Translations under genes and position numbers: made by a program
Assembly (NCBI GenBank): GCA_964586925.1
Contig: CAZPJI010000001.1
Coordinates: forward strand, 63,280 to 127,279
Source: an uncultured Gammaproteobacteria bacterium
Lineage (GTDB): Bacteria; Pseudomonadota; Gammaproteobacteria; JAKDMP01
Length of the DNA: 64,000 nt
Direction: 5' to 3'
The notes under the pieces: model-generated
What the model saw: the letters and a program-made list of their open reading frames with translations, nothing else
Told to the model about the DNA's origin: nothing
Databases searched by the model: none
In this document: piece after piece, positions 28,685-50,741 of the stretch
Layout: each line of letters opens with the position of its first letter
Position numbering within the stretch: position 1 is the stretch's first letter

Positions 28685-28894
28685 TGACGGGTAATCTCCC
28701 CAATGCTGTTACACGATCGCTTTCCGTTCCGTTTCAGGATACTCTCGGCATAGCGTGAGGATTCTTGACTTCGGTCAACTCCGGCACTTCGGCCAAGTCA
28801 TAACATCGGCTGTACACGCGAATCGGTTATGCGAGGCCTGGAGGACGGGATGACAGCCAATCCCGAAAAATGTCGGGAAGGCGTAAGCCCGCAA

Positions 28895-30493: not shown

Positions 30494-30541
30494 TCACGAT
30501 TGATCGCCATGAATCATGAAAGCTATTCATGAGTCAAAGAG

Positions 30542-30829
30542 GTGTTAATGATGAAACAGACGAGCACAGGCAGTAGTACTGCAGGCAGGAAGGGGACCCG
30601 AATCCCCGTCGCAGCCCGCAAAAAGGCATTAGCCAAGAGTTCAACCACACGCAAACCGGCAACGGCCAGATCGCCCACCTTGGAGCATCCCATTGACGAA
30701 GATGCAAGGCACGCGATGATTGCACAAGCGGCCTATTTTCGTGCAGAGCACCGAGGTTTTGCTCACGGTGAGGAATTGAATGATTGGCTGGAGGCAGAGC
30801 GCGAGATATCGCGCATCATTGAAAGCTGA
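30542..30829 (+). CDS. DUF2934 family small protein with basic low-complexity N-terminus
   Basis: The C-terminal AYFRAEHRGFAHGEELNDWLEAEREI matches the DUF2934 signature. The N-terminal 45 aa are Lys/Arg/Thr/Ser-rich. It is embedded between glgA and the long phosphorylase. Confidence 0.7.
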   Translation: MLMMKQTSTGSSTAGRKGTRIPVAARKKALAKSSTTRKPATARSPTLEHPIDEDARHAMIAQAAYFRAEHRGFAHGEELNDWLEAEREISRIIES

Positions 30830-30834
30830 TCATT

Positions 30835-30864
30835 CCGGGGTTATGTGCTTCGCGGTAACCCCGG
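30835..30864 (+). terminator. GC-rich hairpin (CCGGGGTTA-N12-TAACCCCGG) immediately after the DUF2934 gene stop
   Basis: It is a perfect 9-bp stem seen directly in the sequence. There is no downstream T-tract, so it may be an intra-operon attenuator or stability element rather than an intrinsic terminator. Confidence 0.4.
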
Positions 30865-30966
30865 CACACGCTAATCCGGACGGGTCGTGTCGCCGACCGT
30901 CAGGCGATTCGAAGAGTCGCTTGGGCTTGTGACGAGTAGAGGGCGACTGATCCAGGAGAAGCGGGT

Positions 30967-33468
30967 ATGTTTGCATTTCTGCCTCGAACCCTGCCGGAAA
31001 AGCTTTCGGTTCTCACGGAATTGGCCCTGAACCTGCACTGGACGTGGAATCATGGGCTGGACACTTTATGGGAGATTATCGATCCCGAGTTGTGGGAACG
31101 CAGTCATAATCCCTGGGTGATCCTGCAGAACGCGTCCAAGCAGCGTCTGGACGAGCTCGAAGGGAACAAGGATTTTCTGAGAAAACTCGATCAGGCGCTG
31201 GAAGATCATAGGTGCTATCACAGCGAGCCCAGTTGGTACGAACAACACTCCTCGGGTGATGATCCCGCGGTTATTGCCTATTTCAGCATGGAGTTCGGCC
31301 TGAGTGAAGCCTTTCCGCTCTATGCGGGTGGGCTGGGCGTGCTGGCGGGCGATTATCTCAAGACCGCCAGTGACATGGGCGTGCCGTTGATTGGCATCGG
31401 CCTGCTTTATCAGGAAGGTTATTTTCGCCAGATCATCGACGCCGGTGGTATGCAGCGCGAAGCGTATCCATTCAATGACCCGACCAGCTTGCCGATCCAG
31501 CCCGTCATCAGCAGCGACGGAAGCTGGCTCAAGTTGGAGCTTCCGTTACCCGGCCGGACGTTGTACCTGCGCGTATGGCAGGCGATCGTCGGGCGGACGA
31601 AGCTCTATCTGCTGGACAGTAATGATCTGCGCAACGGTGCCACTGACCGCGGTATTACAGCCAAGCTTTATGGCAGCGGGTCTGAAATGCGTTTGCTTCA
31701 GGAGGTCGTGCTCGGGATCGGCGGCTGGTCGATGCTCGAGGATCTCGGTTTGAATGTGGATGTCTGTCATCTCAATGAAGGACACGCAGCACTGGCTGTC
31801 GTCGAGCGGGCGCGACGTTTCATGTCGAAGCGGGACACGAACTTCCATGAGGCGTGGTGGGGCGCGCGCGCCGGCAACGTTTTCACAACGCATACGCCGG
31901 TACCCGCCGGTTTCGATGAATTCCCGCCCTCCCTGATATACAAATACGTCCACGAACATTTAAATGAATTCAGGATTTCCTTGCGTGAATTCCTGGCGCT
32001 GGGACGCCGCGATCCATTCGATGACGATGAACCATTCAATATGACTTTTCTGGCCTTGCATGGCTGCGCGCAATCCAATGGTGTCAGCCGGTTGCACGGA
32101 GAAGTCAGCCGTCGCCTGTTTTCGCGGCTATATCCGCGTTGGCCCCAACAAGAAGTCCCCATTAGACACGTGACCAACGGTATTCATGTGCCGTCTTGGG
32201 ACTCCATCTGGTCCGATAATCTGTGGACCAGCGCCTGCGGCAAACAACGTTGGCTTGGAGAGATAAGAACACTGACTGAAAATATGTCGCAGACGGACGA
32301 TGAATCGTTATGGGCCTTGGCCGCCGAGCAACGCCGGGATCTGGTGCACTACACCCGTGACCGCCTTTCCTGGCAACTCGGCCAGCGTGGCGAATCCCCG
32401 GCGAAGGTGGAAGTGGCTTCGCAAGTGTTGGATCCAAACTGTCTTACCATGGGCTTGGCTCGCCGATTCACCGATTACAAACGCCCGAACCTTCTGTTGC
32501 ATGACCCTCAACGTCTTGAGCGCCTGCTGACTTCGGAGCAATGGCCCGTGCAATTGATTGTCGCCGGCAAGGCACATCCGCAGGACGAGCATGGGAAGCA
32601 AATGATCCACGCGTGGTTCGAATTCTCCCACCAATCCGCTCTGCGAAAACGTGTTGTTTTTCTTGAAGATTACGATATGGCGCTGGCGCAACAACTGGTG
32701 CAAGGTATAGACGTCTGGATCAATACCCCACGCAGGCCCTGGGAGGCTTGCGGAACCAGCGGCATGAAAGTCATTGCCAATGGAGGGCTGAACCTGTCCG
32801 AATGTGATGGCTGGTGGGCCGAAGCTTATAAACCCGCTTATGGTTGGGTTATCGGGAATGGTGATCCCAGCAACGACAAAGATGACGCGAATCGTCTCTA
32901 CGAGTTGCTGGAACAGGAGGTGGTGCCGACGTTTTATGCACGTGATGCACAGGGTATTCCGCGTCAGTGGGTACAGCGAATGCGCGACAGCATGTCCGAG
33001 TTGGGTCCCAGGTTCAGCAGCAATCGCATGTTGATCGATTACCTGGACCATTTCTATCGGCCGGCCACGCATGCCTACCGATCACGGGAAAATGACAAGG
33101 CACGGCTGGCGCGCGAACTGCGTACCTGGAACAAGGCACTCGATACGCAATGGGATGAACTCCATTTTGGCGAAAAGCAGACAGATCGCGAGGGCAACCA
33201 ATGGCGTATCAGCGTTCAGGTCTATCTTGGAGAAATCGCACCGGAGTGGGTGCGTGCTGAATTGTATGCCGATGCCGACGAGAATCATCCTGCCGAGATT
33301 CTCCCAATGACTACGGAGGGCACCATGCCAGGGGCTTTCGAGGGTTATATATTTTCGGTCACTTTTAATTCAGACAGGCCGGCTGAGGATTACACACCCA
33401 GGGTTCGTGCCTGGCACGAGGCAGCGTTTCTACCCGCCGAATGCCATTTGATCGCCTGGCAAGGTTAA
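30967..33468 (+). CDS. Alpha-glucan family phosphorylase (GT35), long form with N-terminal DUF3417
   Basis: The 833-aa protein has an N-terminal LALNLHWTWNH (DUF3417-like), plus YFSMEFGLSE..GGLGVLAGD and ACGTSGMKVIANGGLNLSECDGWW. Confidence 0.88.
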   Translation: MFAFLPRTLPEKLSVLTELALNLHWTWNHGLDTLWEIIDPELWERSHNPWVILQNASKQRLDELEGNKDFLRKLDQALEDHRCYHSEPSWYEQHSSGDDPAVIAYFSMEFGLSEAFPLYAGGLGVLAGDYLKTASDMGVPLIGIGLLYQEGYFRQIIDAGGMQREAYPFNDPTSLPIQPVISSDGSWLKLELPLPGRTLYLRVWQAIVGRTKLYLLDSNDLRNGATDRGITAKLYGSGSEMRLLQEVVLGIGGWSMLEDLGLNVDVCHLNEGHAALAVVERARRFMSKRDTNFHEAWWGARAGNVFTTHTPVPAGFDEFPPSLIYKYVHEHLNEFRISLREFLALGRRDPFDDDEPFNMTFLALHGCAQSNGVSRLHGEVSRRLFSRLYPRWPQQEVPIRHVTNGIHVPSWDSIWSDNLWTSACGKQRWLGEIRTLTENMSQTDDESLWALAAEQRRDLVHYTRDRLSWQLGQRGESPAKVEVASQVLDPNCLTMGLARRFTDYKRPNLLLHDPQRLERLLTSEQWPVQLIVAGKAHPQDEHGKQMIHAWFEFSHQSALRKRVVFLEDYDMALAQQLVQGIDVWINTPRRPWEACGTSGMKVIANGGLNLSECDGWWAEAYKPAYGWVIGNGDPSNDKDDANRLYELLEQEVVPTFYARDAQGIPRQWVQRMRDSMSELGPRFSSNRMLIDYLDHFYRPATHAYRSRENDKARLARELRTWNKALDTQWDELHFGEKQTDREGNQWRISVQVYLGEIAPEWVRAELYADADENHPAEILPMTTEGTMPGAFEGYIFSVTFNSDRPAEDYTPRVRAWHEAAFLPAECHLIAWQG

Positions 33469-33540
33469 GGGGCACAGGCCGCACGGGAACTAATCGGTTT
33501 CCGCGGCCACTAAAGCTGTACTTGTGCGAGCGGAGAGGGC

Positions 33541-34494
33541 GTGAGATCCACTACCTTATTCTTGGGCACCTTGCTCGCAAGCACCCTTCCTCTCGCGGCA
33601 GCACATGCAGGCATCCGATCTCGTAAATGGCTTGAATCCGACTGTAGTCTTTCGTCTTACGCGGAATGCTCGTTCGAATATAAAAATCATCAACAATTCT
33701 CATATTCCAATGCCTCTTCCACTAGCCAGTTGAATGAACACCCGACTCGCCGTTTTGATGGCCGACTTGCCCTGAATTTCCACGCGGCGCAACAACGCAG
33801 GCCGGACGCTGCGCCTTATCCTGGCACCTCAGGAAGTTCAGAACGATCCGATCTCGCTAAATTTTCGCCGGGTGAATCGACGGCGTTTGGCCGGCACACG
33901 GTCGAGTGGACATTAGTGACGGCACCTCTGGCCGCCTTCGCCTTGAGCCCGGTTCTCGACCGCCGTCTCCATTACCAGGACAACGGAATATGGCAACGCA
34001 AACGCCAGCTCGATTTCGAATATGCAGTCATCCTGGGGGAAGTCGGCGGCGGTTTGTGGTTCGGTGGACAAAGCCGTATCGGTAAGACTTTCTGGCGATC
34101 GATGGATGCGTCGTTATATACCGCAATTACGGTCCAGGGCATGAAATACATTTTCAGCCGGGCGCGCCCCCGCCAATCCTCCAGTCCCAATCACTGGTTC
34201 CAGGGTAGCTGCTGTCAGAGTTTCCCAAGCGGTGAAGTGTCATTCCAAGCCAGTGCCGTTACCCCCTTTATCGTCGAGTACCACAAACAGTACCCCTGGG
34301 TCTGGGCATTGGAAGCACTTCCTGCCTACGATGCCTTGGCTCGCATGAAAGCCCACGGCCATTGGCAGACCGATGTTCTGGCTGCGTGGGCCATCGGTAC
34401 CGCATGGGGCATTTATGCGCAATACGAGCCGAAACCGCTCATTCTCAGCATCATGCCGCATGGCATCCTGATAGGTATTCACACCAAATTCTAG
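33541..34494 (+). CDS. Secreted PAP2-superfamily phosphatase
   Basis: It has a signal peptide (MRSTTLFLGTLLASTLPLAAAHA) and the PAP2 motifs KYIFSRARP, PSGE and ARMKAHGHWQTD. It is 317 aa. Confidence 0.7.
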   Translation: MRSTTLFLGTLLASTLPLAAAHAGIRSRKWLESDCSLSSYAECSFEYKNHQQFSYSNASSTSQLNEHPTRRFDGRLALNFHAAQQRRPDAAPYPGTSGSSERSDLAKFSPGESTAFGRHTVEWTLVTAPLAAFALSPVLDRRLHYQDNGIWQRKRQLDFEYAVILGEVGGGLWFGGQSRIGKTFWRSMDASLYTAITVQGMKYIFSRARPRQSSSPNHWFQGSCCQSFPSGEVSFQASAVTPFIVEYHKQYPWVWALEALPAYDALARMKAHGHWQTDVLAAWAIGTAWGIYAQYEPKPLILSIMPHGILIGIHTKF

Positions 34495-34925
34495 CGGGCT
34501 TCGGTGTGTCCCGTTGACCTGTATTCTCAGTGGCTGCTGCGGTCTATTCTGGAATGAACTCGTTGGGTTTGATTCAGTGAGCCTTCAGATGATTCGCTAA
34601 CCAGGAGTTGTAGCATTCCATAAGGCTGATGGTAAACTGCTCCGTATCAGTATTCACCAGCCTTGGGGATTACTTGCATGAATCATCATGCCTGCCGCAG
34701 ACTGCCAGGCATGGATATACGCTGCAGATTACGGCACGGTTCATAAAGTCCATTAAGCCGTCTGGGAGGGTGGCAGTGTGAGAGACGGAACTGGTTATAC
34801 GTTTTCGCTATAATATTTAGTATTTTCTGTCACGCGTTGACGGCTACCGGTACGTTCATGATGCGCCTGTCTGTTTTTATGGAAAGCGAAAAACCGATAA
34901 GCACACGTCTTATATCTACTGCGGC

Positions 34926-35834
34926 ATGAAGACGGCGTTGTCCAGTCCTCTCGACATGATAGACATCGCGACTGGCGCGATCCATCTTTGGCTTGCCGAT
35001 CCAGATGCAGTGGATGCAAAGTTACAGGCCACATACCTTTCTCTTTTGAGTGCTGAAGAAAGAGACCAACAACGACGTTTTCATTTTGAACCGGATCGAC
35101 GCCGGTATCTAGTTACAAGAGCGCTTGTACGCACGGTGCTGTCCCGCTATGCACCGGTGGCACCGTGCGATTGGTCCTTCGCCAAAAACAAGTACGGATG
35201 CCCGCGGATCGACGATACGCACGGAGCGGCCACTCACATCCGTTTCAACCTGTCGCATACGCACAGCCTGATCGTCCTTGCGGTAGGTAAAGGTAATGCG
35301 CTCGGCGTCGACGTTGAGAACGTTAGCATTCGCGATATTTCAATCGATCTTGCGGACCAATTTTTTGCGCCTGACGAAGTCGAAGCTCTGCGTAGAACAG
35401 AAACGAATCGTCAGAAGGATAGATTCTTCGAATATTGGACGTTCAAAGAGTCCTACATTAAGGCCCGCGGCATGGGCCTGTCGCTTCCCCTTGATCAATT
35501 CAGCTTCGAACTTTTGCAAGCGGGCGCGGTCTCTTTTCGAGTGGCCCCAGAATTGGAGGATCGGGCCTCGCGATGGCGATTTTGTCAGCTTCGCCCGAGT
35601 TCCGACTACATCGTGGCTCTGTGCGTGGAATCCGTCGGTGAGCAGGTTACTCCAGTGAGTCTCATACGGACTATGCCGCTGGTGTGGTACAAGCAGCAGC
35701 AACTCTCGCTTTCAAGGATTTCAATGCGGCCGGATTCAGTGCCGAATTTCAAGTCATCTGAGCGAGGCCTGCAACTGGATGGGCGAGGCGGGAATCTGAC
35801 TGGTTTCGCTGCCACGCCTGCTGGATGGATGTAA
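34926..35834 (+). CDS. 4'-phosphopantetheinyl transferase, Sfp/EntD type
   Basis: It has the motifs FNLSHT, GVDVENV and FFEYWTFKESYIKARG (W/FxxKEAxxK). It is 302 aa and sits in a lower-GC region flanked by about 400-nt and about 170-nt non-coding stretches. Confidence 0.8.
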   Translation: MKTALSSPLDMIDIATGAIHLWLADPDAVDAKLQATYLSLLSAEERDQQRRFHFEPDRRRYLVTRALVRTVLSRYAPVAPCDWSFAKNKYGCPRIDDTHGAATHIRFNLSHTHSLIVLAVGKGNALGVDVENVSIRDISIDLADQFFAPDEVEALRRTETNRQKDRFFEYWTFKESYIKARGMGLSLPLDQFSFELLQAGAVSFRVAPELEDRASRWRFCQLRPSSDYIVALCVESVGEQVTPVSLIRTMPLVWYKQQQLSLSRISMRPDSVPNFKSSERGLQLDGRGGNLTGFAATPAGWM

Positions 35835-36002
35835 TTCCCAAAACGCTATTCGAAGCCTGCTGGCGCCGAGGGATTAGATGCCTCATCCGTTTGGTGGCAC
35901 TAGGTCAGACTAAGAAAATATCTCGATATATGGGATATTTTCAGTCGATTATCTGGTAATGTTAACTTGATTCATACCGTAGCCGCATAGGCTGCTATAG
36001 CC

Positions 36003-38963
36003 ATGAAACCTGAGCTCGGGCGGCACAAGCGGTTACCGCGTCTACGATCTCTTCGATTGCGACTGTTCCTGATTTTTCTTGCTATCGGAACGGGCGCAAT
36101 GGGAATGGTTGTCTGGGGATTTCTCACGAACCTCGAAGAGATTGATATCGCTGCTCGCAGCAGATTGATTAATAATGTTCGTGCAGTCCAGAATGTATAC
36201 CTAGAAAGGGAATTGCGCGCCCAGGCTCATTTCTGGAGAGTCTTCGGTAAACGCTCCGAGCTGCTGGATACTGCCCGATGTCCTGCCATGCTCAAGGCTG
36301 AGATTGGGAATAATCCCGAAATCGTGAATGCCGGACTTGTAGATCCGCAGGGTCATATCATCTGTTCGATACTTCCCATTCCAGCCGATCATCTAAACCT
36401 CAGCGGGGATCCATATTTCGATGCCGCGTTAAATTCCGAAGAACTGGTGAGAGGAGGGTTTTTCATAGGCCCCATATCTCACCGACCCGTCATACTTTTG
36501 GCCGCCCGTATCAGACTAGATAAATTAGCAGCCGACCCTGTCGGTTTTCTCAGCATTCAAACCAATGGATTGAATGCGCTGGAAAAAATGCATGAATTAT
36601 CGAACACGGATGTGCTGACACTCTTGAATTCTCAAGGAACAGTTGTCGCAACATGGCCCTCTAGTGCGAGTGCAATCGGTAAACGTTTTGCTCCAAGAGA
36701 TGCAGACGGTGCTGCTTTCGATCTCAATGGATTGCCTCAAGCCGCTATCAGTATAATTCGCATTGATGGCAAATATTTCGGGATAGGGCGGGTCGCCGGG
36801 CTTGGTTATGTCGTATTGCAATCCACACAAAGCACGCTTTACGGAACAACCTATAAGAACTTCCTGACGAATTCATTGATTGCTGCGTTTCTGGTACTTG
36901 CTGGAGCGATTATTATTTGGCGGCTATTTATGGTTCCGGTAATTCGGAGAAGTCATCTGCTTCGCACGGTCGCAAACGACTTGACGCATGGCAATAGTGA
37001 AGCACGCACCGGAATGAAATCGGGTCGTGATGATCTGGATGAGGTCGGTTATGCGTTTGACAAAATGGCTGATGCATTAGGCGATAGGGCTTCTCAGCTG
37101 GAAGAAAAAACGCGACAAATAGAGGCGAATCGAGACAAGCTGGAAAAACTGAATAGGATCCATCGAATACTTACCTCGGTATCTCGCATGCTTGTGGGCG
37201 TGCAGGATAGAAGCGATTTGTTCCTGGCCGTATGCCGTATAGCGGTCGAGCAAGGATTATTCAAAGTAGTTTGGATCTCGCGAATAGCTGATGACGGCAC
37301 GACGGCGACGTCGGTTGCGTGGGCAGGACAGGGCGCGGAATATCTTGAAGACTTTACTCTGAATATTGCGACACTCCCTGATCGCGAAGGCATTGTGGGA
37401 AGGGCGCTGAGGTATGAAGCACCGGCTATTAGTGACGATTTCGTGAATGATCCGAGATTGAGCTCCTGGAAAGAGATCGGGTTGAGACTCAAATACGGAG
37501 CAGGAGCAGCCTTTCCTATCGTTCATCAGGACAGAATCGCCTACATGCTTTCAGCCTATGCGGAGAAGGGTTTTTTCGATGACGAAGCTCTTTCGCTACT
37601 GGAATCCCTGGTAGGGGACATCGAACATGGCCTGCGCAGAATAACAGCGGAGAGCAAAGCAGACTTTCTAGCCACCCACGATGCAGCTACGGGACTTCCA
37701 AACGTTCGCAATCTTGAAGACAAACTGGACGCCTTAATTCAAAGAGATCGCAATAGCAATCAAGCAACCGCATTATTGTGTATCGAGGTCTCGAACTACG
37801 AAAAAATCATAGACGATCACGGACTTCTAATTGGAGCTGAAGTAATACGGAAAATCTCTCAGAACATCGAAAGAGGGGAGCACGACAGAGATTTGATGGC
37901 TCGGCTTTCAGGGAACAAAATCGGCATCGCGTTGACCAACGTGCAAAGTATTCAGAATATGAGCCAGATAGTACGAAAGATTTCAGACTCGCTCCCCGGA
38001 AAAATCGTGGCGGCAAAAGAACAAATTTTTCCGACCTATCGTTGCGGCGTGTCGATTAGTCCGAATGACGCAGATTCAGCGGCAGGGCTGGTGGGCAATT
38101 CACAACGCGCCTGTGTCCGTGCAGATCCTGGCGCAGTGCGCTTTTTCGAAAAAAACATCGATACAGAGGCCCAGGAAGTCAGACGACTGGAACTTGCAAT
38201 GCGTGCCTCAATTCAAGCGAAAGCATTCGTGTTGCATTATCAGCCGATCATTGATGTCGAAAAAATGCAGATTGTCGGATTCGAGGCATTGGCACGTTGG
38301 CCCGAGGGGCCTGATGGGGTGCCCGTCCCGCCAGCACGCTTTATCCCTATATTGGAGCGTGCTGATCTGATCCCATCGTTCGGGCAATGGGTCCTGGAAG
38401 AGGCTGCAAACCAAGCTGCGCGCTGGGCGGCCAAGGGGCATGAAAACATATATTTGGCGGTGAACGTATCGGCACTCCAACTACAGGAAGCCACGTTTTC
38501 CGATGATGTGCGGAGGGCACTGGAGGAAGCAGGTGACCTGGGAGCAAATAGCCTCATGCTGGAAATCACCGAAAGTATGCTGCTCGAGGCCCAATCAGCC
38601 ACACGCCTGCACTTGGATCGGTTGCAGGAAATGGGAGTCAATTTGATCCTGGACGATTTTGGAACAGGCTATTCCTCTCTATCGTATCTTCACACATTGC
38701 CGTTTACAGTCCTCAAAATAGATAAGAGCTTCATCGCCACGATATGTGACAGCAGCCGAAGTATGGCGCTAGTGAAGGCGATCATGGGTTTCGGCGAGGC
38801 ATTGAAGTTGCGCATCATAGCTGAGGGAATCGAAACCGCCGAGCATAAGAACCTGATGCAACAATTGGGGTGTCGGTATATGCAAGGATTTTATTTTGCA
38901 AAACCTATGGCCGCCGGAGAGGCCGAGGCACTTCTCAGCAATCGCAGCCCATTCACTTCATGA
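36003..38963 (+). CDS. Membrane sensor protein with periplasmic sensor, HAMP, GAF, degenerate GGDEF and EAL domains (probable c-di-GMP phosphodiesterase)
   Basis: The 986-aa protein has two TM segments flanking a periplasmic domain of about 270 aa, a coiled coil/HAMP and a GAF-like region. Its GGDEF position reads SGNKIG (degenerate). An intact EAL domain follows (ELLEITESMLL, DDFGTGYSSLSYL, QGFYFAKP). Confidence 0.85.
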   Translation: MKPELGRHKRLPRLRSLRLRLFLIFLAIGTGAMGMVVWGFLTNLEEIDIAARSRLINNVRAVQNVYLERELRAQAHFWRVFGKRSELLDTARCPAMLKAEIGNNPEIVNAGLVDPQGHIICSILPIPADHLNLSGDPYFDAALNSEELVRGGFFIGPISHRPVILLAARIRLDKLAADPVGFLSIQTNGLNALEKMHELSNTDVLTLLNSQGTVVATWPSSASAIGKRFAPRDADGAAFDLNGLPQAAISIIRIDGKYFGIGRVAGLGYVVLQSTQSTLYGTTYKNFLTNSLIAAFLVLAGAIIIWRLFMVPVIRRSHLLRTVANDLTHGNSEARTGMKSGRDDLDEVGYAFDKMADALGDRASQLEEKTRQIEANRDKLEKLNRIHRILTSVSRMLVGVQDRSDLFLAVCRIAVEQGLFKVVWISRIADDGTTATSVAWAGQGAEYLEDFTLNIATLPDREGIVGRALRYEAPAISDDFVNDPRLSSWKEIGLRLKYGAGAAFPIVHQDRIAYMLSAYAEKGFFDDEALSLLESLVGDIEHGLRRITAESKADFLATHDAATGLPNVRNLEDKLDALIQRDRNSNQATALLCIEVSNYEKIIDDHGLLIGAEVIRKISQNIERGEHDRDLMARLSGNKIGIALTNVQSIQNMSQIVRKISDSLPGKIVAAKEQIFPTYRCGVSISPNDADSAAGLVGNSQRACVRADPGAVRFFEKNIDTEAQEVRRLELAMRASIQAKAFVLHYQPIIDVEKMQIVGFEALARWPEGPDGVPVPPARFIPILERADLIPSFGQWVLEEAANQAARWAAKGHENIYLAVNVSALQLQEATFSDDVRRALEEAGDLGANSLMLEITESMLLEAQSATRLHLDRLQEMGVNLILDDFGTGYSSLSYLHTLPFTVLKIDKSFIATICDSSRSMALVKAIMGFGEALKLRIIAEGIETAEHKNLMQQLGCRYMQGFYFAKPMAAGEAEALLSNRSPFTS

Positions 38964-39069
38964 ATTCAGTTGATGAGCGATGCATTTGACTCCGATTTTC
39001 ACCCTATATGGAATATATAGTTAATCCAACGAGCATCGTTATAGATAATATCGGCTGTGACTGACGGCA

Positions 39070-39446
39070 GTGCCTGAACTCCTGTCGGTTCAAACGGATT
39101 ACCCGCGTCCGCCGGTACTAAGCCGTGAACTGGGAGTTGTGACGTTCTTCTACGCCACAGCCATGAAAGAGGGGCTTGAAGAGCGGGAACGGGGAACCAC
39201 GGAATAACGCGGCACACAGCGCTTCTGGCCGGGTGGGCCGCGTTACTTGGGCGCATTTCGTGCCAGGACAATCTCGTCGTTGGAACGTTAATGCCCGTGT
39301 CTGATCGATCGGAAGACGTGGCCAGAGAGCCAACTGCCCAGACGTTTCCGGTACGACTGGATCTTGCGGGGCGACCGTCTGTAGCTGAACTTGTGAGACG
39401 CGTAAAACAATGCACTAGCCAAGCCCTTGTCGGTCGTCATAACTAA
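39070..39446 (+). pseudogene. Remnant of a non-ribosomal peptide synthetase condensation domain (frameshifted fragment)
   Basis: Two adjacent frames translate to PELLSVQTDYPRPPVLSRELGV... and ...TALLAGWAALLGRISCQDNLVVGTLMPVSDRSEDVAREPTAQTFPVRLDLAGRPSVAELVRRVKQCTSQALVGRHN*. These match the conserved NRPS C-domain stretch (L.LP.DRPRP....G..; LLAAF..LL.R.SGQ.D..VGTP.A.R...E.E..IG.F.N.L.LR.DL.G.P.F.EL..RV...). It is disrupted by a frameshift near 39205-39215. No intact ORF is present and the flanks are very AT-rich. Coordinates are approximate (plus or minus a few nt). Confidence 0.6.
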
Positions 39447-39655
39447 TGTCAAAAAATAGAAAATTACAATATAACAGCTACTAATAGAGATATTTTAATA
39501 ATCTAGATTAGAAATACGCGAAAAAATGACATGAACTTTGACAATTGGTAGCTTCGCCAGAAAGCCCGAATTACATCGTGAACGTGGTCGTGGTTTCTGT
39601 TCAATACGTCCTTTAACCTGAATAATGAGCGGGAGCACCGGCATCCCAAGGCTTT

Positions 39656-40681
39656 TTAGAATCTGATGTTGGGCCAGACAGCTCCGGCTGCCAAGCCCAG
39701 AATGTAGAGCCATCCGAAGAACCGGTTATGGAGCAGGCACGCGCGGTGATACCACAGCGGCCAACCTATGTAGCCCTCTGGCGGAGATGCCGGTCTCGGG
39801 TGCGTGAATCGCGCAACCGCCCGCACTGCGCGCGGGGCAGCTACCAGGACAATAAGGCAGAACGGGCTAAGTACGCCGGATGCGACCAATACTGTCATTA
39901 CGGCATACATGCCAACGATCGCGGCTATTTCGAGCCTGCAAGCCGCGCGTATACCAAGGAGCACAGGAAGGGTATGGATTTTCCTGCTCCTGTCGAAGTC
40001 GATTTGATCGATATGCTTGCCGACCAGGATGGACATGACACCCAGTCCATACGGAACTGACGCGAAGAAAACGGTCAGCGATAGATGGCCCGCGATCATG
40101 GCGTACCCGCCACCTACCATGAGTGGCCCCCAGACCAAAAACACGGCCACTTCACCCAGGCCTATGTTTTTGAGAGGAATCGGTGCCGCGTCATAAGCGA
40201 AGAGCAAGGTTACGCCAGCAATCAGAAAGCCCGCGGCAAGCCAGCCGTATTCGATTATGAAGAAGGCCGATATCGCTATTCCGATCATGGCTAGAATTGC
40301 CAAACCGATGCCCAGTGCGGCCGGATCTATAATGCCGCTTGTCAAAGGGTGCAACGTATAGCGCATGCGCGGAGAGTCCGGCGTATCGTCACCGCGTCTG
40401 TAACCGAAGTAATCGTTGCTCAGATTGCTGATCATATGAGCGGTGAGGTACCCGACAAGTACGAGGATAAAGCCGTCCCAGCGAAAATGTCTGGAAGTGG
40501 CAGCAAGTAAGCCCGAGATCAACGCAGCCTGTGCCGAGATAACCAGAATCACGCTGCGTGCCGCGTATAGAAAACGCGAAACAATATCGAGAGAACTTAT
40601 TTTGTCGGGATTGGGCCTGTAGAAACCGGTAAATGCTCCTAGCCAGCGGGCCATTGTCAAGCGGAGGATGGATGTCGGCAT
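39656..40681 (-). CDS. UbiA-superfamily prenyltransferase, MenA-like (DHNA octaprenyltransferase family)
   Basis: The 341-aa protein has about 8-9 TM helices and a first Asp-rich motif NDYFGYRRGDD of MenA type (NDYxDxxxGxD with G at the second position). Confidence 0.7.
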   Translation of the reverse strand: MPTSILRLTMARWLGAFTGFYRPNPDKISSLDIVSRFLYAARSVILVISAQAALISGLLAATSRHFRWDGFILVLVGYLTAHMISNLSNDYFGYRRGDDTPDSPRMRYTLHPLTSGIIDPAALGIGLAILAMIGIAISAFFIIEYGWLAAGFLIAGVTLLFAYDAAPIPLKNIGLGEVAVFLVWGPLMVGGGYAMIAGHLSLTVFFASVPYGLGVMSILVGKHIDQIDFDRSRKIHTLPVLLGIRAACRLEIAAIVGMYAVMTVLVASGVLSPFCLIVLVAAPRAVRAVARFTHPRPASPPEGYIGWPLWYHRACLLHNRFFGWLYILGLAAGAVWPNIRF

Positions 40682-40892
40682 GAATTCTTTCCTGATCCGT
40701 GCGGTTGTTCAGCGAGTTTTTTATTGGGCGCTGAAATTATCAGCAGTTAAAAATATTCCTTGTCTCTTGTATCCATAGAGTAGCGTTACAGCAGAGCGAT
40801 TCAATTCATGGCCCAAGTGAGTAAACCGGTATCACAGTTTCTATATACGGGGTAATTCCGAAATGCTCTGTCCTGACTATCAACAATCATTA

Positions 40893-41426
40893 TTAGCCAT
40901 GTTCGACAGGCGTGAGTATAAGCTCATCATGATCATCGATACTAGCGCTCATGAGTTTGTCATCCAGATAGATTGCAACATCCCCGTAGCCGCCGGAACG
41001 TAATTGCCGGGCCGATGCAACCTCCAGGATGGCTGCGGCCTTACGGCGGTCACTCGCCGGCACCCGGTATATGCCGAATGTCTTACGCTGACCGTCGGGT
41101 TGAACATAATACTCATGAATGCTGATCGTATGATCGGATACCGGCTTGGAAGAGGTGTCGGCCAGTGTGGCGTCGCCCGCATTCTGCGGCCTTTTCGACC
41201 GAGTAATATTGAGTTTGTTATGGCTGTCAACGAATACATCTACCGGCGTATCGTCCAGGTATACGGCAGTTTTCAGATAGCCGCCGGCGCGAAGGCCTTC
41301 CGCCGAGAGCACATCGAGGAGTGCTGCGACTTTGTCGGTCTCAGTGTCGGGTATGCGGTATGAACCCAGAAGCTCCCTGGTTCCGTCGGGACGCGGATAG
41401 TATTCTTCAATGCGGAACATAGCCAT
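40893..41426 (-). CDS. Hypothetical protein built from two tandem copies of an about 75-aa domain
   Basis: Residues about 1-75 and about 100-175 are recognisably homologous. The alignable blocks are EEYYPRPDGTRELLGSYRIPDTETDKVAALLDVLSAEGLRAGGY...VYLDD versus HEYYVQPDGQRKTFGIYRVPASDRRKAAAILEVASARQLRSGGY...IYLDD. There is no signal peptide. Confidence 0.45.
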   Translation of the reverse strand: MAMFRIEEYYPRPDGTRELLGSYRIPDTETDKVAALLDVLSAEGLRAGGYLKTAVYLDDTPVDVFVDSHNKLNITRSKRPQNAGDATLADTSSKPVSDHTISIHEYYVQPDGQRKTFGIYRVPASDRRKAAAILEVASARQLRSGGYGDVAIYLDDKLMSASIDDHDELILTPVEHG

Positions 41427-41587
41427 TTGCTTACTCCATTCCGATCAACCACATATGTTTATTCAGTATTTCATCAAGATCGGACATCCGTCTTGATCGC
41501 GGTCAATCAAGGAAATCCCCGGTTCACCATCGTCCCTGAAGTAGAGTTATCATTATTGAAAGTTTTGGGTATTCCGGGAGCAGACAT

Positions 41588-41914
41588 ATGAAAGCATCTC
41601 AGATATTGTTATCGTTGGGTTTGTTGACCATACCGCTGGTTTCTATGGCCGCAGCGCCCTCCAAACAAGCAAAAAAACTGTATGGCGATCATTGTGCAAT
41701 GTGCCATGGCAGTGACGGAAAGGCAGTTATGCCGGGCGCAGGAGATATGACAGATCCCAAAGGTCCCCTGTCGAAGCCGGATAGCGTCCTGGTCGAGAAT
41801 ACACTCGCTGGGATCGGGAATATGCCCGGGTTCAAGGGACAGCTGACCAAGGATCAGATTTCCGCGATCCTTGCTTACATGCGGGCGGAATTCAAGGTAA
41901 AGGCCAAGCACTGA
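41588..41914 (+). CDS. Class I monohaem c-type cytochrome (periplasmic)
   Basis: It has a signal peptide, a single CAMCHG haem-binding site and a distal Met ligand region (GNMPGF). It is 108 aa. Confidence 0.8.
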   Translation: MKASQILLSLGLLTIPLVSMAAAPSKQAKKLYGDHCAMCHGSDGKAVMPGAGDMTDPKGPLSKPDSVLVENTLAGIGNMPGFKGQLTKDQISAILAYMRAEFKVKAKH

Positions 41915-41988
41915 AATCCACCGGTGCAGCCCATTGGAGGCATTGGCCGGAATAAAGCGGCGGGTCGAATATATTTCTGGTCTGCCAT

Positions 41989-42474
41989 TTGAATTCCGGC
42001 GCTTCGGGTGAGGGGAAAGCCGTGGAAGAATATGTGCTTGCGCGTTCTTTTCCCCAGGATCGGCGCCTTCTTTACGGCTTGATTGCAGGCATAGAAAAAT
42101 ACCCCGATTTCGTCCCCGGGTATAAGTCCGTGAATGTTCGCGGTCGTGAAGAGCGCAAGCTTTATGTAACGCAAACGGTGAGCATGCTCGGCCTGGAAAC
42201 GACATTCGATTCCATGGCCACTTTCGATCCGCCGCAGCTTCTCATTATCGACGCTTTCCCACCGGGTTTTAGCAGCATGCGGATCGAATGGAGATTTGAC
42301 GAGTTGGCGGTTGAGGCCACCCGGATTCAGATTAAAATCCGTTACGAAGCAAAGGGGTTTCTGATGAGGCGGTTTTCCCGACCTTGGATTCGGGCCTATG
42401 CGGACATGCAGGTAAGGGCTTTTCGGGAGCGCGCGAACAGACTGGACAGGGATGAGAACCGATCCGGCCCGTAG
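41989..42474 (+). CDS. SRPBCC-fold protein (Coq10/RatA-YfjG family)
   Basis: The START/polyketide-cyclase-like core (VLARSFPQDRRLLYGLIAGIEKYPDFVPGYKSV...) is typical of the RatA/Coq10 ubiquinone-binding family. The true start is probably an internal or alternative codon. Confidence 0.65.
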   Translation: MNSGASGEGKAVEEYVLARSFPQDRRLLYGLIAGIEKYPDFVPGYKSVNVRGREERKLYVTQTVSMLGLETTFDSMATFDPPQLLIIDAFPPGFSSMRIEWRFDELAVEATRIQIKIRYEAKGFLMRRFSRPWIRAYADMQVRAFRERANRLDRDENRSGP

Positions 42475-42616
42475 TGCCGGCCGGACGGTTTGGCGTGGAG
42501 GCGGGCGGCTATGCGATTGACCTGGATCAACTCGAAGCCTGTTTACAGGCCGGGAATCCGGCATGATATTCGATCAGGTGTAATCTGGTAGCGGTTCACC
42601 AGTGGGTGGTTCTGCA

Positions 42617-42859
42617 ATGGGTATCGATGGCATAAGCATTTGGCAGCTGCTTATTATTCTGCTTCTGGTCGTTGTGCTTTTCGGCACGGGTAAACTGCGC
42701 CGGGTGGGTACGGACATGGGACATGCAATCCGGGGCTTTAAACGCGGCCTCCGCGGCGACGGTGAAGAGTCCTCGGCAACGCAACAGGAAGTATCGTCCG
42801 ACACGAATGACGGAAGGAAGGGGAAAGCCCGAAAAGCAGCATCGGCCGAGCGGAAATAA
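42617..42859 (+). CDS. tatA: Twin-arginine translocase subunit TatA/E
   Basis: [44 protein letters not shown] is the canonical TatA TM helix plus amphipathic helix. The start is the internal Met of track ORF 42602-42859. Confidence 0.88.
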
Positions 42860-42874
42860 CCGCTTAGCAACGCA

Positions 42875-43165
42875 ATGTTCAGTGGCAGCTCGGGCGAGTT
42901 GGCCCTCATATTTCTGCTGATGCTGCTCGTTTTCGGACCGGAGCGGCTGCCTGGGCTTGCCCGTAATTTCGGCAAACTGGTCCGCCGCTCCCGGATCCTC
43001 GTGCAGTCGGTATGGAATCAACTGGAAGATGAAATAGACCGTAGCGAAAAAGCTCAACGTAACAAGACCGCTGCTGCAGAACTCGGACGGCAAGTACAGG
43101 TTCCCGGCTCGGACAGGCAGGCACGGTCTGCCGAAAACGTGACAAATGATGATGCACAAGCTTGA
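42875..43165 (+). CDS. tatB: Twin-arginine translocase subunit TatB
   Basis: MFSGSSGELALIFLLMLLVFGPERLPGLARNFGKLVRRSR matches the TatB N-terminal consensus. It is 96 aa. Confidence 0.85.
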   Translation: MFSGSSGELALIFLLMLLVFGPERLPGLARNFGKLVRRSRILVQSVWNQLEDEIDRSEKAQRNKTAAAELGRQVQVPGSDRQARSAENVTNDDAQA

Positions 43166-43253
43166 GTATGACCGCCACATACAGTGCAGCTTTGGCCGGC
43201 TTACAAAACAGCTTGAATACGAATATGAGCATATGGTTGGGGTCTGGTGATCG

Positions 43254-44033
43254 ATGTTGGGTCTGCATAAACGCCGCGACGATAATGAGGAAGCCACGCC
43301 CCTTATTGCGCATTTGCTGGAAATAAGACGGCGGTTGCTGATTGTTGTCGGGGTCTTTGTCGTGGTTTTGATCCCGTGCGCCCTGTTTTCCCGCCAATTG
43401 TTCGTGCTCCTGGCTCTGCCGATCATGCAGCGCCTTCCGGCCGGTTCCTCGATGATCGCAACGGGGGTTGCATCTCCCTTCCTTACGCCGTTCAAGCTTG
43501 CGGCCGGCGTGGCTGCATTCGCCTCCGTTCCCGTGGCTCTGTATCAGGCGTGGGCTTTTCTGGTTCCGGGGCTTTACAGACGTGAGCGTCACCTGCTTGG
43601 CCCATTGCTTGCCCTCAGCCTGTTACTTTTCTACCTCGGCATGGCTTTTGCCTATTTCGTAATTGCGCCCCTGGCGTTGCATTTCTTCATTTCCATGGCG
43701 CCGCCCGGTGTTAAGGTCATGACGGACATCGGAAGCTATTTGAGCTTCACTATGACGTTGTTCTTTGCTTTCGGCTTTGCCTTCGAACTCCCGATTATCG
43801 AGGTGGCCCTGGTCTGGCTGGGTGCGTTAAACGTGGAAAAACTGCGCAAATTCCGTCCCTATATGCTGATTAGCGCATTCATTTTAGGCATGTTGCTCAC
43901 GCCGCCTGACATGTTCTCCCAAACCTTGCTTGCGATTCCGCTCTACGGGCTTTATGAGCTGGGAATACTATTGTCCCGTTTCATGCTCAATCCAGATGCT
44001 GAGTTGGCGACGGAAACGGGCAACTCCGAATAG
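43254..44033 (+). CDS. tatC: Twin-arginine translocase subunit TatC
   Basis: The 259-aa protein has six TM helices and TatC N-terminal motifs (PLIAHLLEIRRRLL, FSRQLFVLLALP). Confidence 0.9.
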   Translation: MLGLHKRRDDNEEATPLIAHLLEIRRRLLIVVGVFVVVLIPCALFSRQLFVLLALPIMQRLPAGSSMIATGVASPFLTPFKLAAGVAAFASVPVALYQAWAFLVPGLYRRERHLLGPLLALSLLLFYLGMAFAYFVIAPLALHFFISMAPPGVKVMTDIGSYLSFTMTLFFAFGFAFELPIIEVALVWLGALNVEKLRKFRPYMLISAFILGMLLTPPDMFSQTLLAIPLYGLYELGILLSRFMLNPDAELATETGNSE

Positions 44034-44065
44034 ATCATCCGCTGAATATTTAAATCCCGCTCGCC

Positions 44066-45073
44066 TCAACAGATGCGGGGCAGGGGCTCGTTCTCGAGTT
44101 CTTCGAGTACTCGTTCCCCGCCAAATTCCGTACGGACGACCACTTCCGGGTAGCCTGATTGGACTTCGCCGATAATGACCGCACCAGGTGCCGCCCCCGT
44201 TTCCCGCAGCCTGCTCACCGCGGCCTCGGCTTCTTTTCCGTCCATGACGGCGACAATACGTCCCTCGCAAGCCAGATAGTAAGGATCGAAGCCCAGGATT
44301 TCACACACCGAAGCAACCGGGGGGCTCACAGGTATGAAAACTTCCGACAGGTACAGTCCGAGACCGGTCGCGCGTGCGATTTCGTTGGCGACGGTCGCGA
44401 CGCCGCCGCGCGTGGGATCCCGCATGAAGCGCAGCCCCGAAAACATGCGCAAAACACGGGCCGCGGGCAGTACGCTGGCCGCATCTGAGTGCAAGTCTCC
44501 GCTCAAGCCATAGTCTTCCCGGGCAAGCAGGACCGCGGCGCCATGATCGCCAACGGAGCCCGTCAGCACGATTTTGTCGCCGGGGCGAATCCGGTCCATT
44601 CCCAGGCTAAGTCCTTGCTGCTTGAGCCCGACGCCGGTGGTGGCGAAGTAAACACCGCCACACTCCCCACGTCCCACAACCTTGGTGTCGCCCGCAACGA
44701 TGGTCACCTCGCAGGCACGGGCGGCGGCAGACATGGAATCCAGCAGGCGTTCGAGAAGGGCAATCTCGAGCCCTTCCTCGAGGAAGGCGTTGAGAGTGAG
44801 GTATCTGGGTTCGGCGCCAGAGACGGCCAGGTCGTTGACGGTGCCGTGAATGGCTAACGAACCGATATCGCCACCGGGAAATTCCAGCGGCTGCACGGTG
44901 AAGCCATCGGTGGTGATCATCAGCTCTCCCTCCGCCGGCCAGGGTAGTTGCGCCGCATCGACGTTGACATCCAGGAGGGGGGAGGCAAGCCGGGACGCGA
45001 AAACGTTTTCGATCAGTTGCCGCATGAGTTTGCCGCCGTTACCGTGCGCAATGATGACATGGCTATCGTGCAT
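44066..45073 (-). CDS. hypE: [NiFe]-hydrogenase maturation factor HypE (carbamoyl dehydratase)
   Basis: It has the PurM-like fold, an N-terminal HGNGG and the C-terminal PRIC cysteine motif. It is 335 aa. Confidence 0.92.
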   Translation of the reverse strand: MHDSHVIIAHGNGGKLMRQLIENVFASRLASPLLDVNVDAAQLPWPAEGELMITTDGFTVQPLEFPGGDIGSLAIHGTVNDLAVSGAEPRYLTLNAFLEEGLEIALLERLLDSMSAAARACEVTIVAGDTKVVGRGECGGVYFATTGVGLKQQGLSLGMDRIRPGDKIVLTGSVGDHGAAVLLAREDYGLSGDLHSDAASVLPAARVLRMFSGLRFMRDPTRGGVATVANEIARATGLGLYLSEVFIPVSPPVASVCEILGFDPYYLACEGRIVAVMDGKEAEAAVSRLRETGAAPGAVIIGEVQSGYPEVVVRTEFGGERVLEELENEPLPRIC

Positions 45074-45085
45074 GAGCCCCCCGAA

Positions 45086-47431: not shown

Positions 47432-47597
47432 AAAGCGGCCTCAGGTCCGGGCGTCGGCCGGTGAGGGAATGGCGTTGAAAGAAGTCACGTTGCAGTCTCC
47501 GGCCGTGCGAAAAACACTGGTGCTCTCGCAAAGCTGCAGAACCCGCAAAAAATAATTTCTTTTCTTTGCGACTTGGCGCCTTTGCGGGAGTTTCTTT

Positions 47598-50506: not shown

Positions 50507-50738
50507 CGGGCGATTCTCCAATGGCCTCTGCCAGCTCGGCAAAGAGCGCCAGTGTCTTTTCCGCTTCTTCGACGTCGAGCTTGTTGATGGCATGGCCTAC
50601 GTGCACGATGACATAGTCGCCCGGTTGCACGTCATCCAGGAGTGCAACGGATATATGACTGCGGATGCCGCCGGTATCCACGAGTGCGATCTCGTCCGGA
50701 AGCAATTCCACGACTTGTGCGGGCACCGCGAGGCACAT
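50481..50738 (-). CDS. hypC: [NiFe]-hydrogenase maturation chaperone HypC
   Basis: MCLAVPAQVVEL... has the N-terminal Cys2 signature of HypC/HupF. It is 85 aa and overlaps the hypD start. Confidence 0.9.
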   Translation of the reverse strand: MCLAVPAQVVELLPDEIALVDTGGIRSHISVALLDDVQPGDYVIVHVGHAINKLDVEEAEKTLALFAELAEAIGESPDAVYPRVS

Positions 50739-50741
50739 GAT

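Follow-up and report, generated by a model that had tools for sequence, protein, structure and literature searches.

A segment of 5.16 kb (positions 34495–39655) in the window, i.e., in the whole 64-kb stretch of DNA analysed here, probably represents the remains of a biosynthetic gene cluster of the non-ribosomal peptide synthetase (NRPS) type that has undergone ordinary cluster decay. An earlier note on this DNA had proposed just such a relic, with the synthetase gone and the phosphopantetheinyl transferase (PPTase) intact, and this is supported by the gene order and by the sequence of the synthetase stub when compared with the related metagenomic contig L002 (SRR26074209). Nothing was found behind the label of a siderophore cluster, which the note had also used. 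The novelty of the case is low, as it implies no new mechanism or family.

Boundaries and Composition of the Segment

The segment sits where two conserved chromosomal blocks meet and is specific to the window, its limits being set by two relatives, L168 (GCA_975972135.1) and L100, the one syntenic relative among 80 loci in a UbiA scan of metagenomes. On the left, L168 matches window positions 21031–34484 with 84.1% nucleotide identity in a single block, which stops at the stop codon of a PAP2-family gene (33541–34494, + strand; Pfam PAP2), the final gene of the conserved left block and a flank outside the segment. Beyond PAP2, L168 continues with yaaH/satP-acs in place of the PPTase segment. 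On the right, L100 is collinear with the window from position 48806 down to 39672 (hypF-hypE-tatCBA-ratA-cyt c-177 aa-UbiA), and homology ends at the stop codon of the UbiA-family prenyltransferase gene (39656–40681, − strand; Pfam UbiA), which opens the conserved right block and likewise lies outside the segment. After UbiA, L100 carries a YncE-like propeller gene and then a different PAS-GGDEF-EAL gene. The hydrogenase large subunit finds its best PDB match in 3MYR, from Allochromatium vinosum, which gives a hint of the affinity of the source. Since PAP2 and UbiA are adjacent in neither relative, the segment is located at a synteny break.

Both edges of the segment are formed by spacer DNA. 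The left spacer (34495–34626) lies between the last position matched by L168 (34484) and the first one matched by the cluster (34627), and it has no detectable homology to the relatives or to the cluster. A candidate PCP relic in this interval was dropped, as it amounted to just a 13-aa likeness ('VDLYSQWLLRSIL', E-value, 13). The right spacer (39447–39655), between the NRPS stub and the UbiA stop codon, is AT-rich, has no homology to L002, L084, L169 or L100, and contains no site scored as terminator-like. Comparison of the AT-rich spacers of the window with the downstream DNA of L169 or L084 also revealed no homology.

The G–C content of the segment is 50.1%, compared with 59.4% in the remainder of the window. 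The drop in G–C content described in the earlier note is therefore real, but the immediate flanks have 54–56% rather than the 62% given there, and the intergenic stretches said to lie below 35% have 47.6% (34.5–34.9 kb) and 37.3% (39.45–39.65 kb), with the lowest 200-nt window at 33.5%. The two lowest GC3 values among 34 genes belong to the segment, the GGDEF/EAL gene being at the bottom (49.7%, z = −2.45).

The G–C content stays under the window mean across about 30 to 44 kb, which would fit a classical integrative island, with all of 34.5–41.5 kb inserted as a single low-GC mobile unit. Such an insertion is very improbable and is already contradicted by the flanks. The proteins encoded by UbiA, the 177-aa gene (40893–41426; part of the conserved right block together with UbiA), cytochrome c, RatA and TatABC share 70–86% amino acid identity with those of L100 and are collinear, so that the right edge is at 39655 and not, as first proposed, at 41500. 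A moderate dip of the same relative kind over UbiA–Tat is also present in L100, and that dip is thus native; in L168, glgP and PAP2 are found in collinear order and with similar G–C content. An integrase, transposase or other mobility domain is absent from every ORF of 34.5–41.6 kb, no tRNA was found (Rfam also gave no match), and the plasmid search by megablast returned no match. The repeats at the segment termini, namely a 21-nt, 81%-complementary AT-rich inverted pair (35907/39484) and direct repeats of 14–16 nt, are at chance level. The segment accordingly shows none of the marks of an integrative island or mobile element (integrase or transposase, tRNA/att-like target, flanking direct repeats).

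The Phosphopantetheinyl Transferase Gene

The ORF at 34926–35834 (+ strand) is intact and codes for a 302-aa Sfp-type 4'-phosphopantetheinyl transferase, in agreement with the earlier note. Its product has the two pseudo-symmetric subdomains of group II enzymes, which are single chains of about 230–280 aa, namely AASDHPPT_N (PF22624; 43.6 bits) and ACPS (PF01648; 72.3 bits), both over cutoff, and the catalytic part covers approximately residues 1–273. Residues 36–215 match Sfp of Bacillus subtilis (1QR0/4MRT; 101.8 bits; E-value, 4 × 10−28). Alignment to 1QR0 revealed that the equivalents of Sfp H90, D107, E109, W147, E151 and K155 are conserved, with 'FNLSHTH', 'LGVDVEN' and 'YWTFKESYIKARG' at the Mg2+/CoA-binding positions, the His, Asp-x-Glu and W..KE..K motifs being common to both proteins. 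The enzyme is thus predicted to move the 4'-phosphopantetheine arm of CoA onto a serine in apo carrier proteins. It differs from Sfp by a C-terminal tail of ~28 aa, which comes from the start of a neighbouring gene, and by the loss of its cognate synthetase. The Sfp gene accompanies the surfactin cluster, and the close relatives of the window PPTase are likewise encoded inside NRPS clusters. The best NCBIfam model is HetI (NF042922), but the score of 133.4 bits is far under the equivalog cutoff of 370, and therefore the PPTase falls in no named orthologous group.

A start of the gene at 34926 is backed by the L002 protein, with which the product aligns from residue 1 onward. Upstream of it, a non-coding leader/promoter region (34627–34925, + strand) is conserved, as revealed by blastn matches to L084 (328–412 against 34630–34716; 76%), L002 (matches to 34627–34715 and 34851–34929) and L085 (3144–3396 against 34663–34925; 69%). 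The leader has no match in Rfam at gathering thresholds and noise alone at E < 1, and its consensus fold is weak (−8.6 kcal/mol; four sequences). Promoter and terminator scans gave fewer sites than shuffled sequence.

The closest PPTase homologs (62–71% amino acid identity) directly adjoin NRPS genes, all three informative contexts (L002, L003 and L085/L086) being NRPS clusters. The earlier note had named a related locus free of NRPS as an observation that would speak against it, and the outcome was in its favor. At greater distance, a scan of genome contigs with the PPTase gave a best match of 57% identity, and a C domain occurs within 10 kb of PPTases 45–57% identical at just 3 of 80 genome loci. 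This scarcity is what a stand-alone housekeeping PPTase, lying beside the NRPS fragment by coincidence, would lead one to expect. Such a reading is largely contradicted by the contexts of the closest homologs and by L002, in which the ortholog of the stub is the immediate downstream neighbour of the PPTase ortholog, and it appears highly unlikely; the more distant homologs are also found in biosynthetic contexts, with a downstream acyltransferase at 42 loci, a ~2600-aa megaenzyme starting with an ACP at 25, and a ketosynthase at 19.

The PPTase is under purifying selection, with dN/dS of 0.09–0.23 in five pairwise comparisons, which may largely date from the time when the NRPS was still intact. 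If the gene had been decaying at the rate of the stub, the chance of finding zero lesions would be, by our own estimate, about 0.01–0.1; judged within the window itself, the case for a continuing need for the enzyme is weak. In the sister contig L084 (SRR8557214; same sample), the PPTase (83% amino acid identity, 810 nt) is intact as well, and the adjoining PCP contains a frameshift and three in-frame stops, one of them in place of the attachment serine. Based on purifying selection and on this survival beside a pseudogenised PCP, the PPTase has probably been kept to serve a carrier protein encoded elsewhere. The case suggests that Sfp-type PPTases can persist once the cognate megasynthase is lost, and it should not be concluded from the PPTase that the organism has an active NRPS pathway.

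Stubs of the NRPS Gene and of a BtrH_N-like Gene

The second component of the putative cluster is a pseudogene at 39049–39446 (+ strand), in which an NRPS gene survives as a 5' stub (codons ~19–145) equivalent to the C-terminal lobe of a condensation-like domain. In tblastn, residues 19–67 of the L002 NRPS match 39049–39195 and residues 67–145 match 39195–39428 (E-value, 1 × 10−30), which bears out the two out-of-frame C-domain pieces located by the earlier note at 39070–39446. The stub shares 63–67% amino acid identity with the first 145 residues of the L002 NRPS and 35–36% with the other C domains of that protein, and blastn gives 77.5% nucleotide identity over 329 nt (E-value, 1 × 10−67). 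Among structures in the PDB, C-domain residues 207–320 of Txo2 are matched (E-value, 1 × 10−10) by an alignment that spans the frame change; it covers the 'TDRPRP' region and the beginning of the C-terminal lobe of the teixobactin synthetases Txo1/Txo2 (6P1J, 6OYF). Compared with these C domains, the stub has about a quarter of one, frameshifted and without HHxxxDG. The Pfam Condensation model (PF00668) scores 25.1 bits (E-value, 8.7 × 10−6; profile positions 234–323), under the gathering cutoff of 30.6 bits. Despite this score, homology of the stub to NRPS condensation domains is established at the sequence level by the searches against the PDB C domains and the L002 NRPS, so that the alignment on which the earlier note had staked its reading came out in its favor.

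The low Pfam score, together with a word-indexed protein search in which the 123-aa joined fragment found no match, would be compatible with an artefact, either a chance similarity to C domains or a junction mis-assembled in the metagenome bin. The latter null result is attributable to the fragment being too divergent to share 5-mers with the indexed representatives. The E-values given above argue against chance, and a Logan contig (single-run assembly) is 99.98% identical to window positions 33617–53391 and has the same arrangement, which is thus not an assembly artefact. Proteins of the segment and its flanks have also been recorded from NCBI and JGI contigs. An artefact is the least credible of the explanations considered.

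The start codon of the stub is missing, an in-frame TGA is present at 39058–39060, the G run at 39191–39194 has a surplus of 2 nt relative to L002, which changes the frame, and the 3' end is cut off near 39440. The stub covers C-domain residues ~205–325 and lacks the HHxxxDG motif of the N-terminal lobe; an uninterrupted C-A-T module is precluded by the TGA at 39058, the frame change at 39191–39195 and the absence of an A or T domain from the window. The C domain had previously been described as decayed, which holds for the frameshift and the stop but not for its half-domain extent. The L002 and L085 NRPSs start at Pfam Condensation positions 191–453 and 196–456, respectively, and, as both intact synthetases thus begin with the C-terminal lobe alone, these alignments indicate that decay did not produce the "half C domain", with which the synthetase natively starts. 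For the same reason, the L002 NRPS is similar at its start to the partial C-like N-terminal regions found ahead of A domains in some initiation modules; its N-terminus is also matched by the Lys2-type model TIGR03443 (positions 2–221).

Relative to the L002 NRPS, the stub has dN of 0.187 and dS of 0.72 (ratio 0.26), and the window PPTase relative to that of L002 has dN of 0.175 and dS of 0.78 (ratio 0.23). The close agreement of the two sets of values, along with a lesion count of just a single frameshift and a single stop over about 390 nt, indicates that inactivation of the NRPS was recent. A tblastn search of the 64-kb window with the cluster proteins of L002, L003 and L085 found no further NRPS, PCP or cluster gene, and a T-domain HMM had no match in its six-frame translation.

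A second stub, at 35739–35834 (+ strand), consists of the initial ~31 codons of a BtrH_N-like cluster gene, which continue the reading frame of the PPTase ORF and form its C-terminal tail. Residues 1–31 of a 333-aa L085 protein match 35739–35831 with 58% identity (tblastn; E-value, 4 × 10−6). In L085, L086 and L003, the BtrH_N-like gene comes after the PPTase gene in another frame; in the window, its stub has become joined to the 3' end of the PPTase gene as pseudogene debris. Both 39049–39446 and 35739–35834 deserve to be flagged as pseudogene stubs in annotation.

The GGDEF/EAL Gene

The gene between the two stubs (36003–38963, + strand) codes for a membrane sensor which, based on Pfam hits, motifs and two TM segments, has the architecture TM/Cache-like/TM/GAF/GGDEF/EAL. 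The Pfam scores are 228.8 bits for EAL (PF00563), 85.5 for GGDEF and 51 for GAF_2, and the periplasmic N-terminal domain is weakly Cache-like, under the Pfam cutoff. The EAL domain, over cutoff, contains the EAL, DDFGTG, KID, EGIE and QGF motifs of phosphodiesterases at residues 761, 884, 905, 941 and 961, respectively. The GGDEF site reads SGNKI and RxxD is absent, as in the copy of contig L169 (ERZ27257072), which is not the pattern of an active diguanylate cyclase. The degenerate-GGDEF/EAL sensor of the earlier note was thus recovered, and, as predicted from its motifs, it most likely works as a c-di-GMP phosphodiesterase regulated by a signal. Its GGDEF-EAL tandem (residues ~549–980) matches DibA, PRK10060 and DosP (NCBIfam; E-values from 1 × 10−81 to 1 × 10−89), with which it shares a degenerate GGDEF site and intact EAL catalytic motifs, but every score is far under the equivalog cutoff. 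Just two relatives with >34% identity were found in 5.8 billion clusters.

Related Loci and Probable History of the Segment

Contig L002 carries PCP-PPTase-NRPS in the order and orientation of the PPTase and the stub of the window; its PPTase ortholog has 71% amino acid identity, and an intact NRPS of 4765 aa starts 247 nt downstream. By analogy, the ancestral order would have been a free-standing PCP, the PPTase, more cluster genes and a multi-modular NRPS in which a half condensation-like domain comes first and A and T domains next. In the lineage of the window, the PCP would have been lost, the gene after the PPTase reduced to 31 codons, and the NRPS to about 130 codons with a frameshift and a stop. 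The GGDEF/EAL gene may either have replaced the intervening cluster DNA or have belonged to this version of the cluster for a long time. Remnants of the L002 PPTase–NRPS spacer were sought on both sides of this gene, with local alignments no better than shuffles, so that a step of insertion between PPTase and NRPS would be placed by gene order. The comparison with relatives called for in the earlier note did yield an intact cluster, in L002, but in no genome was one found between PAP2 and UbiA; we therefore infer, rather than observe, that deletion occurred in place and not elsewhere, and the same applies to the succession of events and to the substrate that the PPTase now has.

A related possibility, which we regard as unlikely, is that the genome received the PPTase, GGDEF/EAL gene and NRPS 5' stub in truncated form, through illegitimate or homologous recombination with DNA of a donor in which the cluster was intact, the synthetase never having been complete here. 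The break in synteny relative to both L168 and L100 and the two lowest GC3 values would fit such an event, and the low dN/dS and few lesions of the stub fit recent transfer from a functional donor equally well as local deletion. The PPTase-GGDEF/EAL pair without a stub in L169 also suggests that the two genes are able to move or persist as a unit. Horizontal acquisition, as put forward in the earlier note, is to this extent plausible, the segment being absent here in two relatives. Against it stand the lack of an integrase, transposase, tRNA or flanking repeat and the fact that low G–C content is typical of this PPTase gene family, intact clusters included. Moreover, internal deletions within a resident cluster offer a simpler account of two separate gene starts that are both truncated yet correctly ordered and oriented, and in L084, from the same sample, this cluster is seen at a stage of decay reached independently. 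Decay of a resident cluster is thus the preferred explanation.

An orphan PPTase in a decaying or fragmentary biosynthetic cluster is a general phenomenon, and the window resembles such cases in that an activating or tailoring gene survives the loss of the megasynthase and short pseudogene stubs remain. It differs from them in having no known product or named cluster, and in that it can be lined up with the cluster in its intact form (L002), at an independent stage of decay (L084) and in a third arrangement (L169). With two independent decay stages, its own and that of L084, available for comparison, the locus is a well-bounded example of cluster erosion.

In L169, a GGDEF/EAL copy with 81% identity is again located immediately 3' of a PPTase (about 80% nucleotide identity for the pair), and this adjacency is thus seen in a second lineage. 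No NRPS stub was found in the 475 nt downstream of the L169 pair, and L084 lacks the GGDEF/EAL gene, so that several independent rearrangements have to be assumed. It is conceivable, if somewhat less likely still than entry as a truncated fragment, that PPTase and degenerate-GGDEF/EAL genes form a conserved two-gene unit in which the PPTase outlived the synthetase in at least three lineages (window, L084 and L169) and was recruited to a carrier elsewhere, being perhaps the only Sfp-type enzyme of the cell, with its expression or use linked to c-di-GMP. The PPTase tree is star-like apart from the pairing of the window enzyme with that of L084.

Segment Boundaries and Base Composition

Comparison with relatives limits the window-specific segment to positions 34495–39655 (5161 nt). 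On the left, contig L168 (GCA_975972135.1) is 84% identical to 21031–34484 in a single unbroken block that ends at the stop codon of the PAP2 gene (33541–34494); beyond PAP2, L168 continues with yaaH/satP, acs, and an ABC transporter. On the right, collinearity with contig L100 extends from 48806 leftwards as far as 39672, the stop codon of the UbiA-family gene (39656–40681, minus strand). Past UbiA, L100 carries genes for a YncE-like propeller, an unrelated PAS-GGDEF-EAL protein (27% identity), and an ABC-F protein. The earlier note had extended a low-GC island to 41.5 kb; this right edge was wrong, as the collinearity with L100 places it at 39655, and the UbiA gene and a 177-aa orphan (40893–41426, minus strand) are both assigned by synteny to the conserved right block. 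Family-supported ORFs to the left of the segment include glgA (28829–30493), glgP (30967–33468), and PAP2, and those to the right include the UbiA gene, cytochrome c (41588–41914), a RatA-like gene (41989–42474), tatA, tatB, tatC (42602–44033), and hypE, hypF (44066–47431). The segment itself contains family-supported ORFs for a phosphopantetheinyl transferase (PPTase, 34926–35834) and a GAF-GGDEF-EAL protein (36003–38963).

The glg–PAP2 and UbiA–tat–hyp blocks are joined in the window and non-adjacent in both available relatives, L168 and L100; therefore, the segment marks a chromosomal rearrangement point with junctions at 34495 and 39655. An assembly artefact was ruled out by an independent single-run assembly (Logan contig), which shows 99.98% identity over 33617–53391.

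The G–C content of the segment is 50.1%, compared to 59.4% for the rest of the window (mean for the whole window, 58.6%). It falls gradually from about 30 kb, is 47–50% at 36–38 kb, and again exceeds 60% by 44 kb. Values of below 35% at 34.5–34.9 kb and of 62% in the flanks, as given in the earlier note, were not upheld by the measured composition; its description of the locus holds for the contents, and not for the GC figures or the right boundary. The tat–UbiA genes have the same relative GC dip in L100, the GC of glgP–PAP2 is similar in L168, and the PPTase gene has a lower GC than its neighbours, intact clusters included. The truly anomalous composition is limited to the GGDEF/EAL gene (GC3 of 49.7%, z = −2.45) and the spacers.

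NRPS Gene Remnant

The stub at 39049–39446 represents the 5' remnant of an NRPS gene. The out-of-frame condensation (C) domain pieces that had been noticed here are real: the translations of 39070–39207 and 39210–39446 lie in two different frames, and once joined they align over the frame change with structurally solved NRPS condensation domains (Txo2, residues 207–320; E-value, 1e-10), while the Pfam Condensation match (E-value, 8.7e-6) is under the curated cutoff. The counterpart is found in L002, a contig whose PPTase (71% amino acid identity) is the nearest homolog to have flanking sequence that could be used, and in which an 80-aa free-standing PCP, the PPTase, 247 nt, and an intact 4765-aa NRPS follow each other. 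The stub shares 63–67% amino acid identity (E-value, 1e-30) with the first 145 residues of this NRPS and 77.5% nucleotide identity over 329 nt, and only 35–36% with its remaining C domains, which makes it an ortholog of the 5' end of that gene. It is placed and oriented with respect to the PPTase as in L002, and this counterpart supports the core of the earlier reading of the locus as the relic of an NRPS cluster.

The start codon and the first ~18 codons of the stub are absent, an in-frame TGA is present at 39058, the G run at 39191–39194 has a 2-nt surplus compared to L002, and all sequence past codon ~145 is gone. The frameshift, stop, and truncation stand, but what had been read as a "decayed" C domain is for the most part the original start of the protein. 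Two independent NRPSs, those of L002 and L085, start at Pfam Condensation position ~191–196, with the C-terminal lobe alone directly before the first A domain (L002, 1657–2460; L085, 2766–2070, minus strand). The Lys2-type model TIGR03443 matches this N-terminal half-C region.

Against the L002 NRPS, the stub has dN of 0.187, dS of 0.72, and dN/dS of 0.26 (Nei-Gojobori), practically equal to the PPTase values for the same pair (0.175, 0.78, and 0.23). With just a single frameshift and a single stop, it would have spent little time as a pseudogene, and loss of the synthetase is probably recent compared with the split between the window and the PPTase-bearing contig L169 (dS about 1). The loss may have taken place either in this lineage or in a donor, as none of the contigs compared combines these flanks with an intact cluster.

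A second stub was found at the 3' end of the PPTase ORF. Downstream of the PPTase, L085, L086, and L003 carry in turn genes for a 333-aa BtrH_N-like protein, FkbH, a small ACP, and a MaoC/KR protein, with the NRPS divergent and upstream. The last ~30 codons of the window PPTase ORF (35739–35831; stub, 35739–35834) match residues 1–31 of the BtrH_N-like protein (58%; E-value, 4e-6), and the homologous stretch is in another reading frame in relatives. Thus, the GGDEF/EAL gene is flanked by two truncated cluster-gene starts. A tblastn search with all available cluster proteins revealed no more cluster genes in the window, and no carrier protein was found in its six-frame translation with a T-domain HMM, even at E ≤ 10. 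The PPTase, the degenerate-GGDEF/EAL phosphodiesterase, and NRPS pseudogene stubs are all of known kinds, new but unremarkable here.

Phosphopantetheinyl Transferase

The presence of an Sfp-type PPTase was confirmed (Sfp; E-value, 4e-28). It retains the catalytic His, Asp-x-Glu, and W..KE..K motifs and every sequence feature expected of a working enzyme of this type, and is predicted to be active; dN/dS is 0.09–0.23 in five pairwise comparisons (Nei-Gojobori). Alignment to homologs supports the ATG at 34926 as the likely start, whereas the 232-aa product called in the NCBI record (P0001) would drop most of the N-terminal subdomain.

Retention of the PPTase may be explained by modification of another carrier protein. 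For this, the window by itself makes a weak case; the best support comes from L084, a contig that shares its sequencing run with the Logan contig, and where the neighbouring PCP is heavily decayed and the PPTase (83% identical) is not. The PCP pseudogene (118–336; 78% identity to the L002 PCP; E-value, 1e-15) has three in-frame stops, including a TGA that replaces the phosphopantetheine-attachment serine (DLD*FD), at least one frameshift, and no 3' end; the adjoining PPTase gene is intact (810 nt).

A non-coding leader lies upstream of the PPTase (window, 34627–34716 and 34851–34925; L002, 350–462; L084, 328–412; L085, 3144–3396). It contains the motif GGTAAACT...ATGAATCATCATGCCTGCC and equals the coding sequence in conservation (69–76% nucleotide identity) across contigs with synonymous sites near saturation. 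The leader has no Rfam match and a weak consensus fold, and may be an operator or promoter.

The gene neighbourhood of PPTases 45–57% identical to that of the window is conserved in Thermoanaerobaculia, Lysobacterales, and Steroidobacteraceae (80 genome loci). C domains are rarely nearby (3 of 80). A calcineurin-like metallophosphoesterase is encoded just upstream in 60 and a FabD-like acyltransferase just downstream in 42; 25 neighbourhoods encode a ~2600-aa megaenzyme that begins with an ACP, and 19 encode a ketosynthase. Therefore, the wider PPTase family is also tied to biosynthetic clusters.

GGDEF/EAL Protein

The protein has a GAF domain and two predicted membrane segments. As had been proposed, its GGDEF domain is degenerate (SGNKI signature); the EAL domain has the full set of usual catalytic motifs, the hallmarks of an active phosphodiesterase, so the protein is best read as a sensor phosphodiesterase with predicted activity. 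Within the N-terminal 400 aa (36003–37200), the periplasmic domain between the membrane segments is only faintly Cache-like (24 bits vs. a 45-bit cutoff). In a database of 5.8 billion clusters, just two relatives exceed 34% identity.

Downstream of its PPTase, L169 carries a GGDEF/EAL gene 81% identical to that of the window (dN/dS of 0.11 between the two, Nei-Gojobori) and then 475 nt of AT-rich DNA, in which the NRPS stub was not found; the adjacency of the pair, therefore, predates the lineage of the window. About 40 nt before the GGDEF/EAL start codon, the window (35948–35963) and L169 (703–718) share the identical 16-nt sequence ATTATCTGGTAATGTT, while the upstream intergenic region is otherwise diverged.

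Remainder of the Window

Outside the segment, the gene content is that of an ordinary chromosome (dnaB, radA, glycogen genes, an efflux pump, and NiFe hydrogenase), and no tRNA genes or Rfam families were found across the whole 64 kb. Further lower-GC patches occur at 10000–13000 (54.9%) and 60000–63000 (52.6%). The latter includes another UbiA-family gene (61248–62135), which adjoins a multihaem cytochrome/cytochrome b fusion (59152–60927) downstream of an Isp-type NiFe hydrogenase, the large subunit of which has its best PDB match to 3MYR. The 177-aa protein consists of two ~85-aa internal repeats, without Pfam or NCBIfam match, and a database of 1.84 billion protein representatives has a single related entry (65% identity); even so, the protein is kept in L100 (70% amino acid identity) in the same place between cytochrome c and UbiA.
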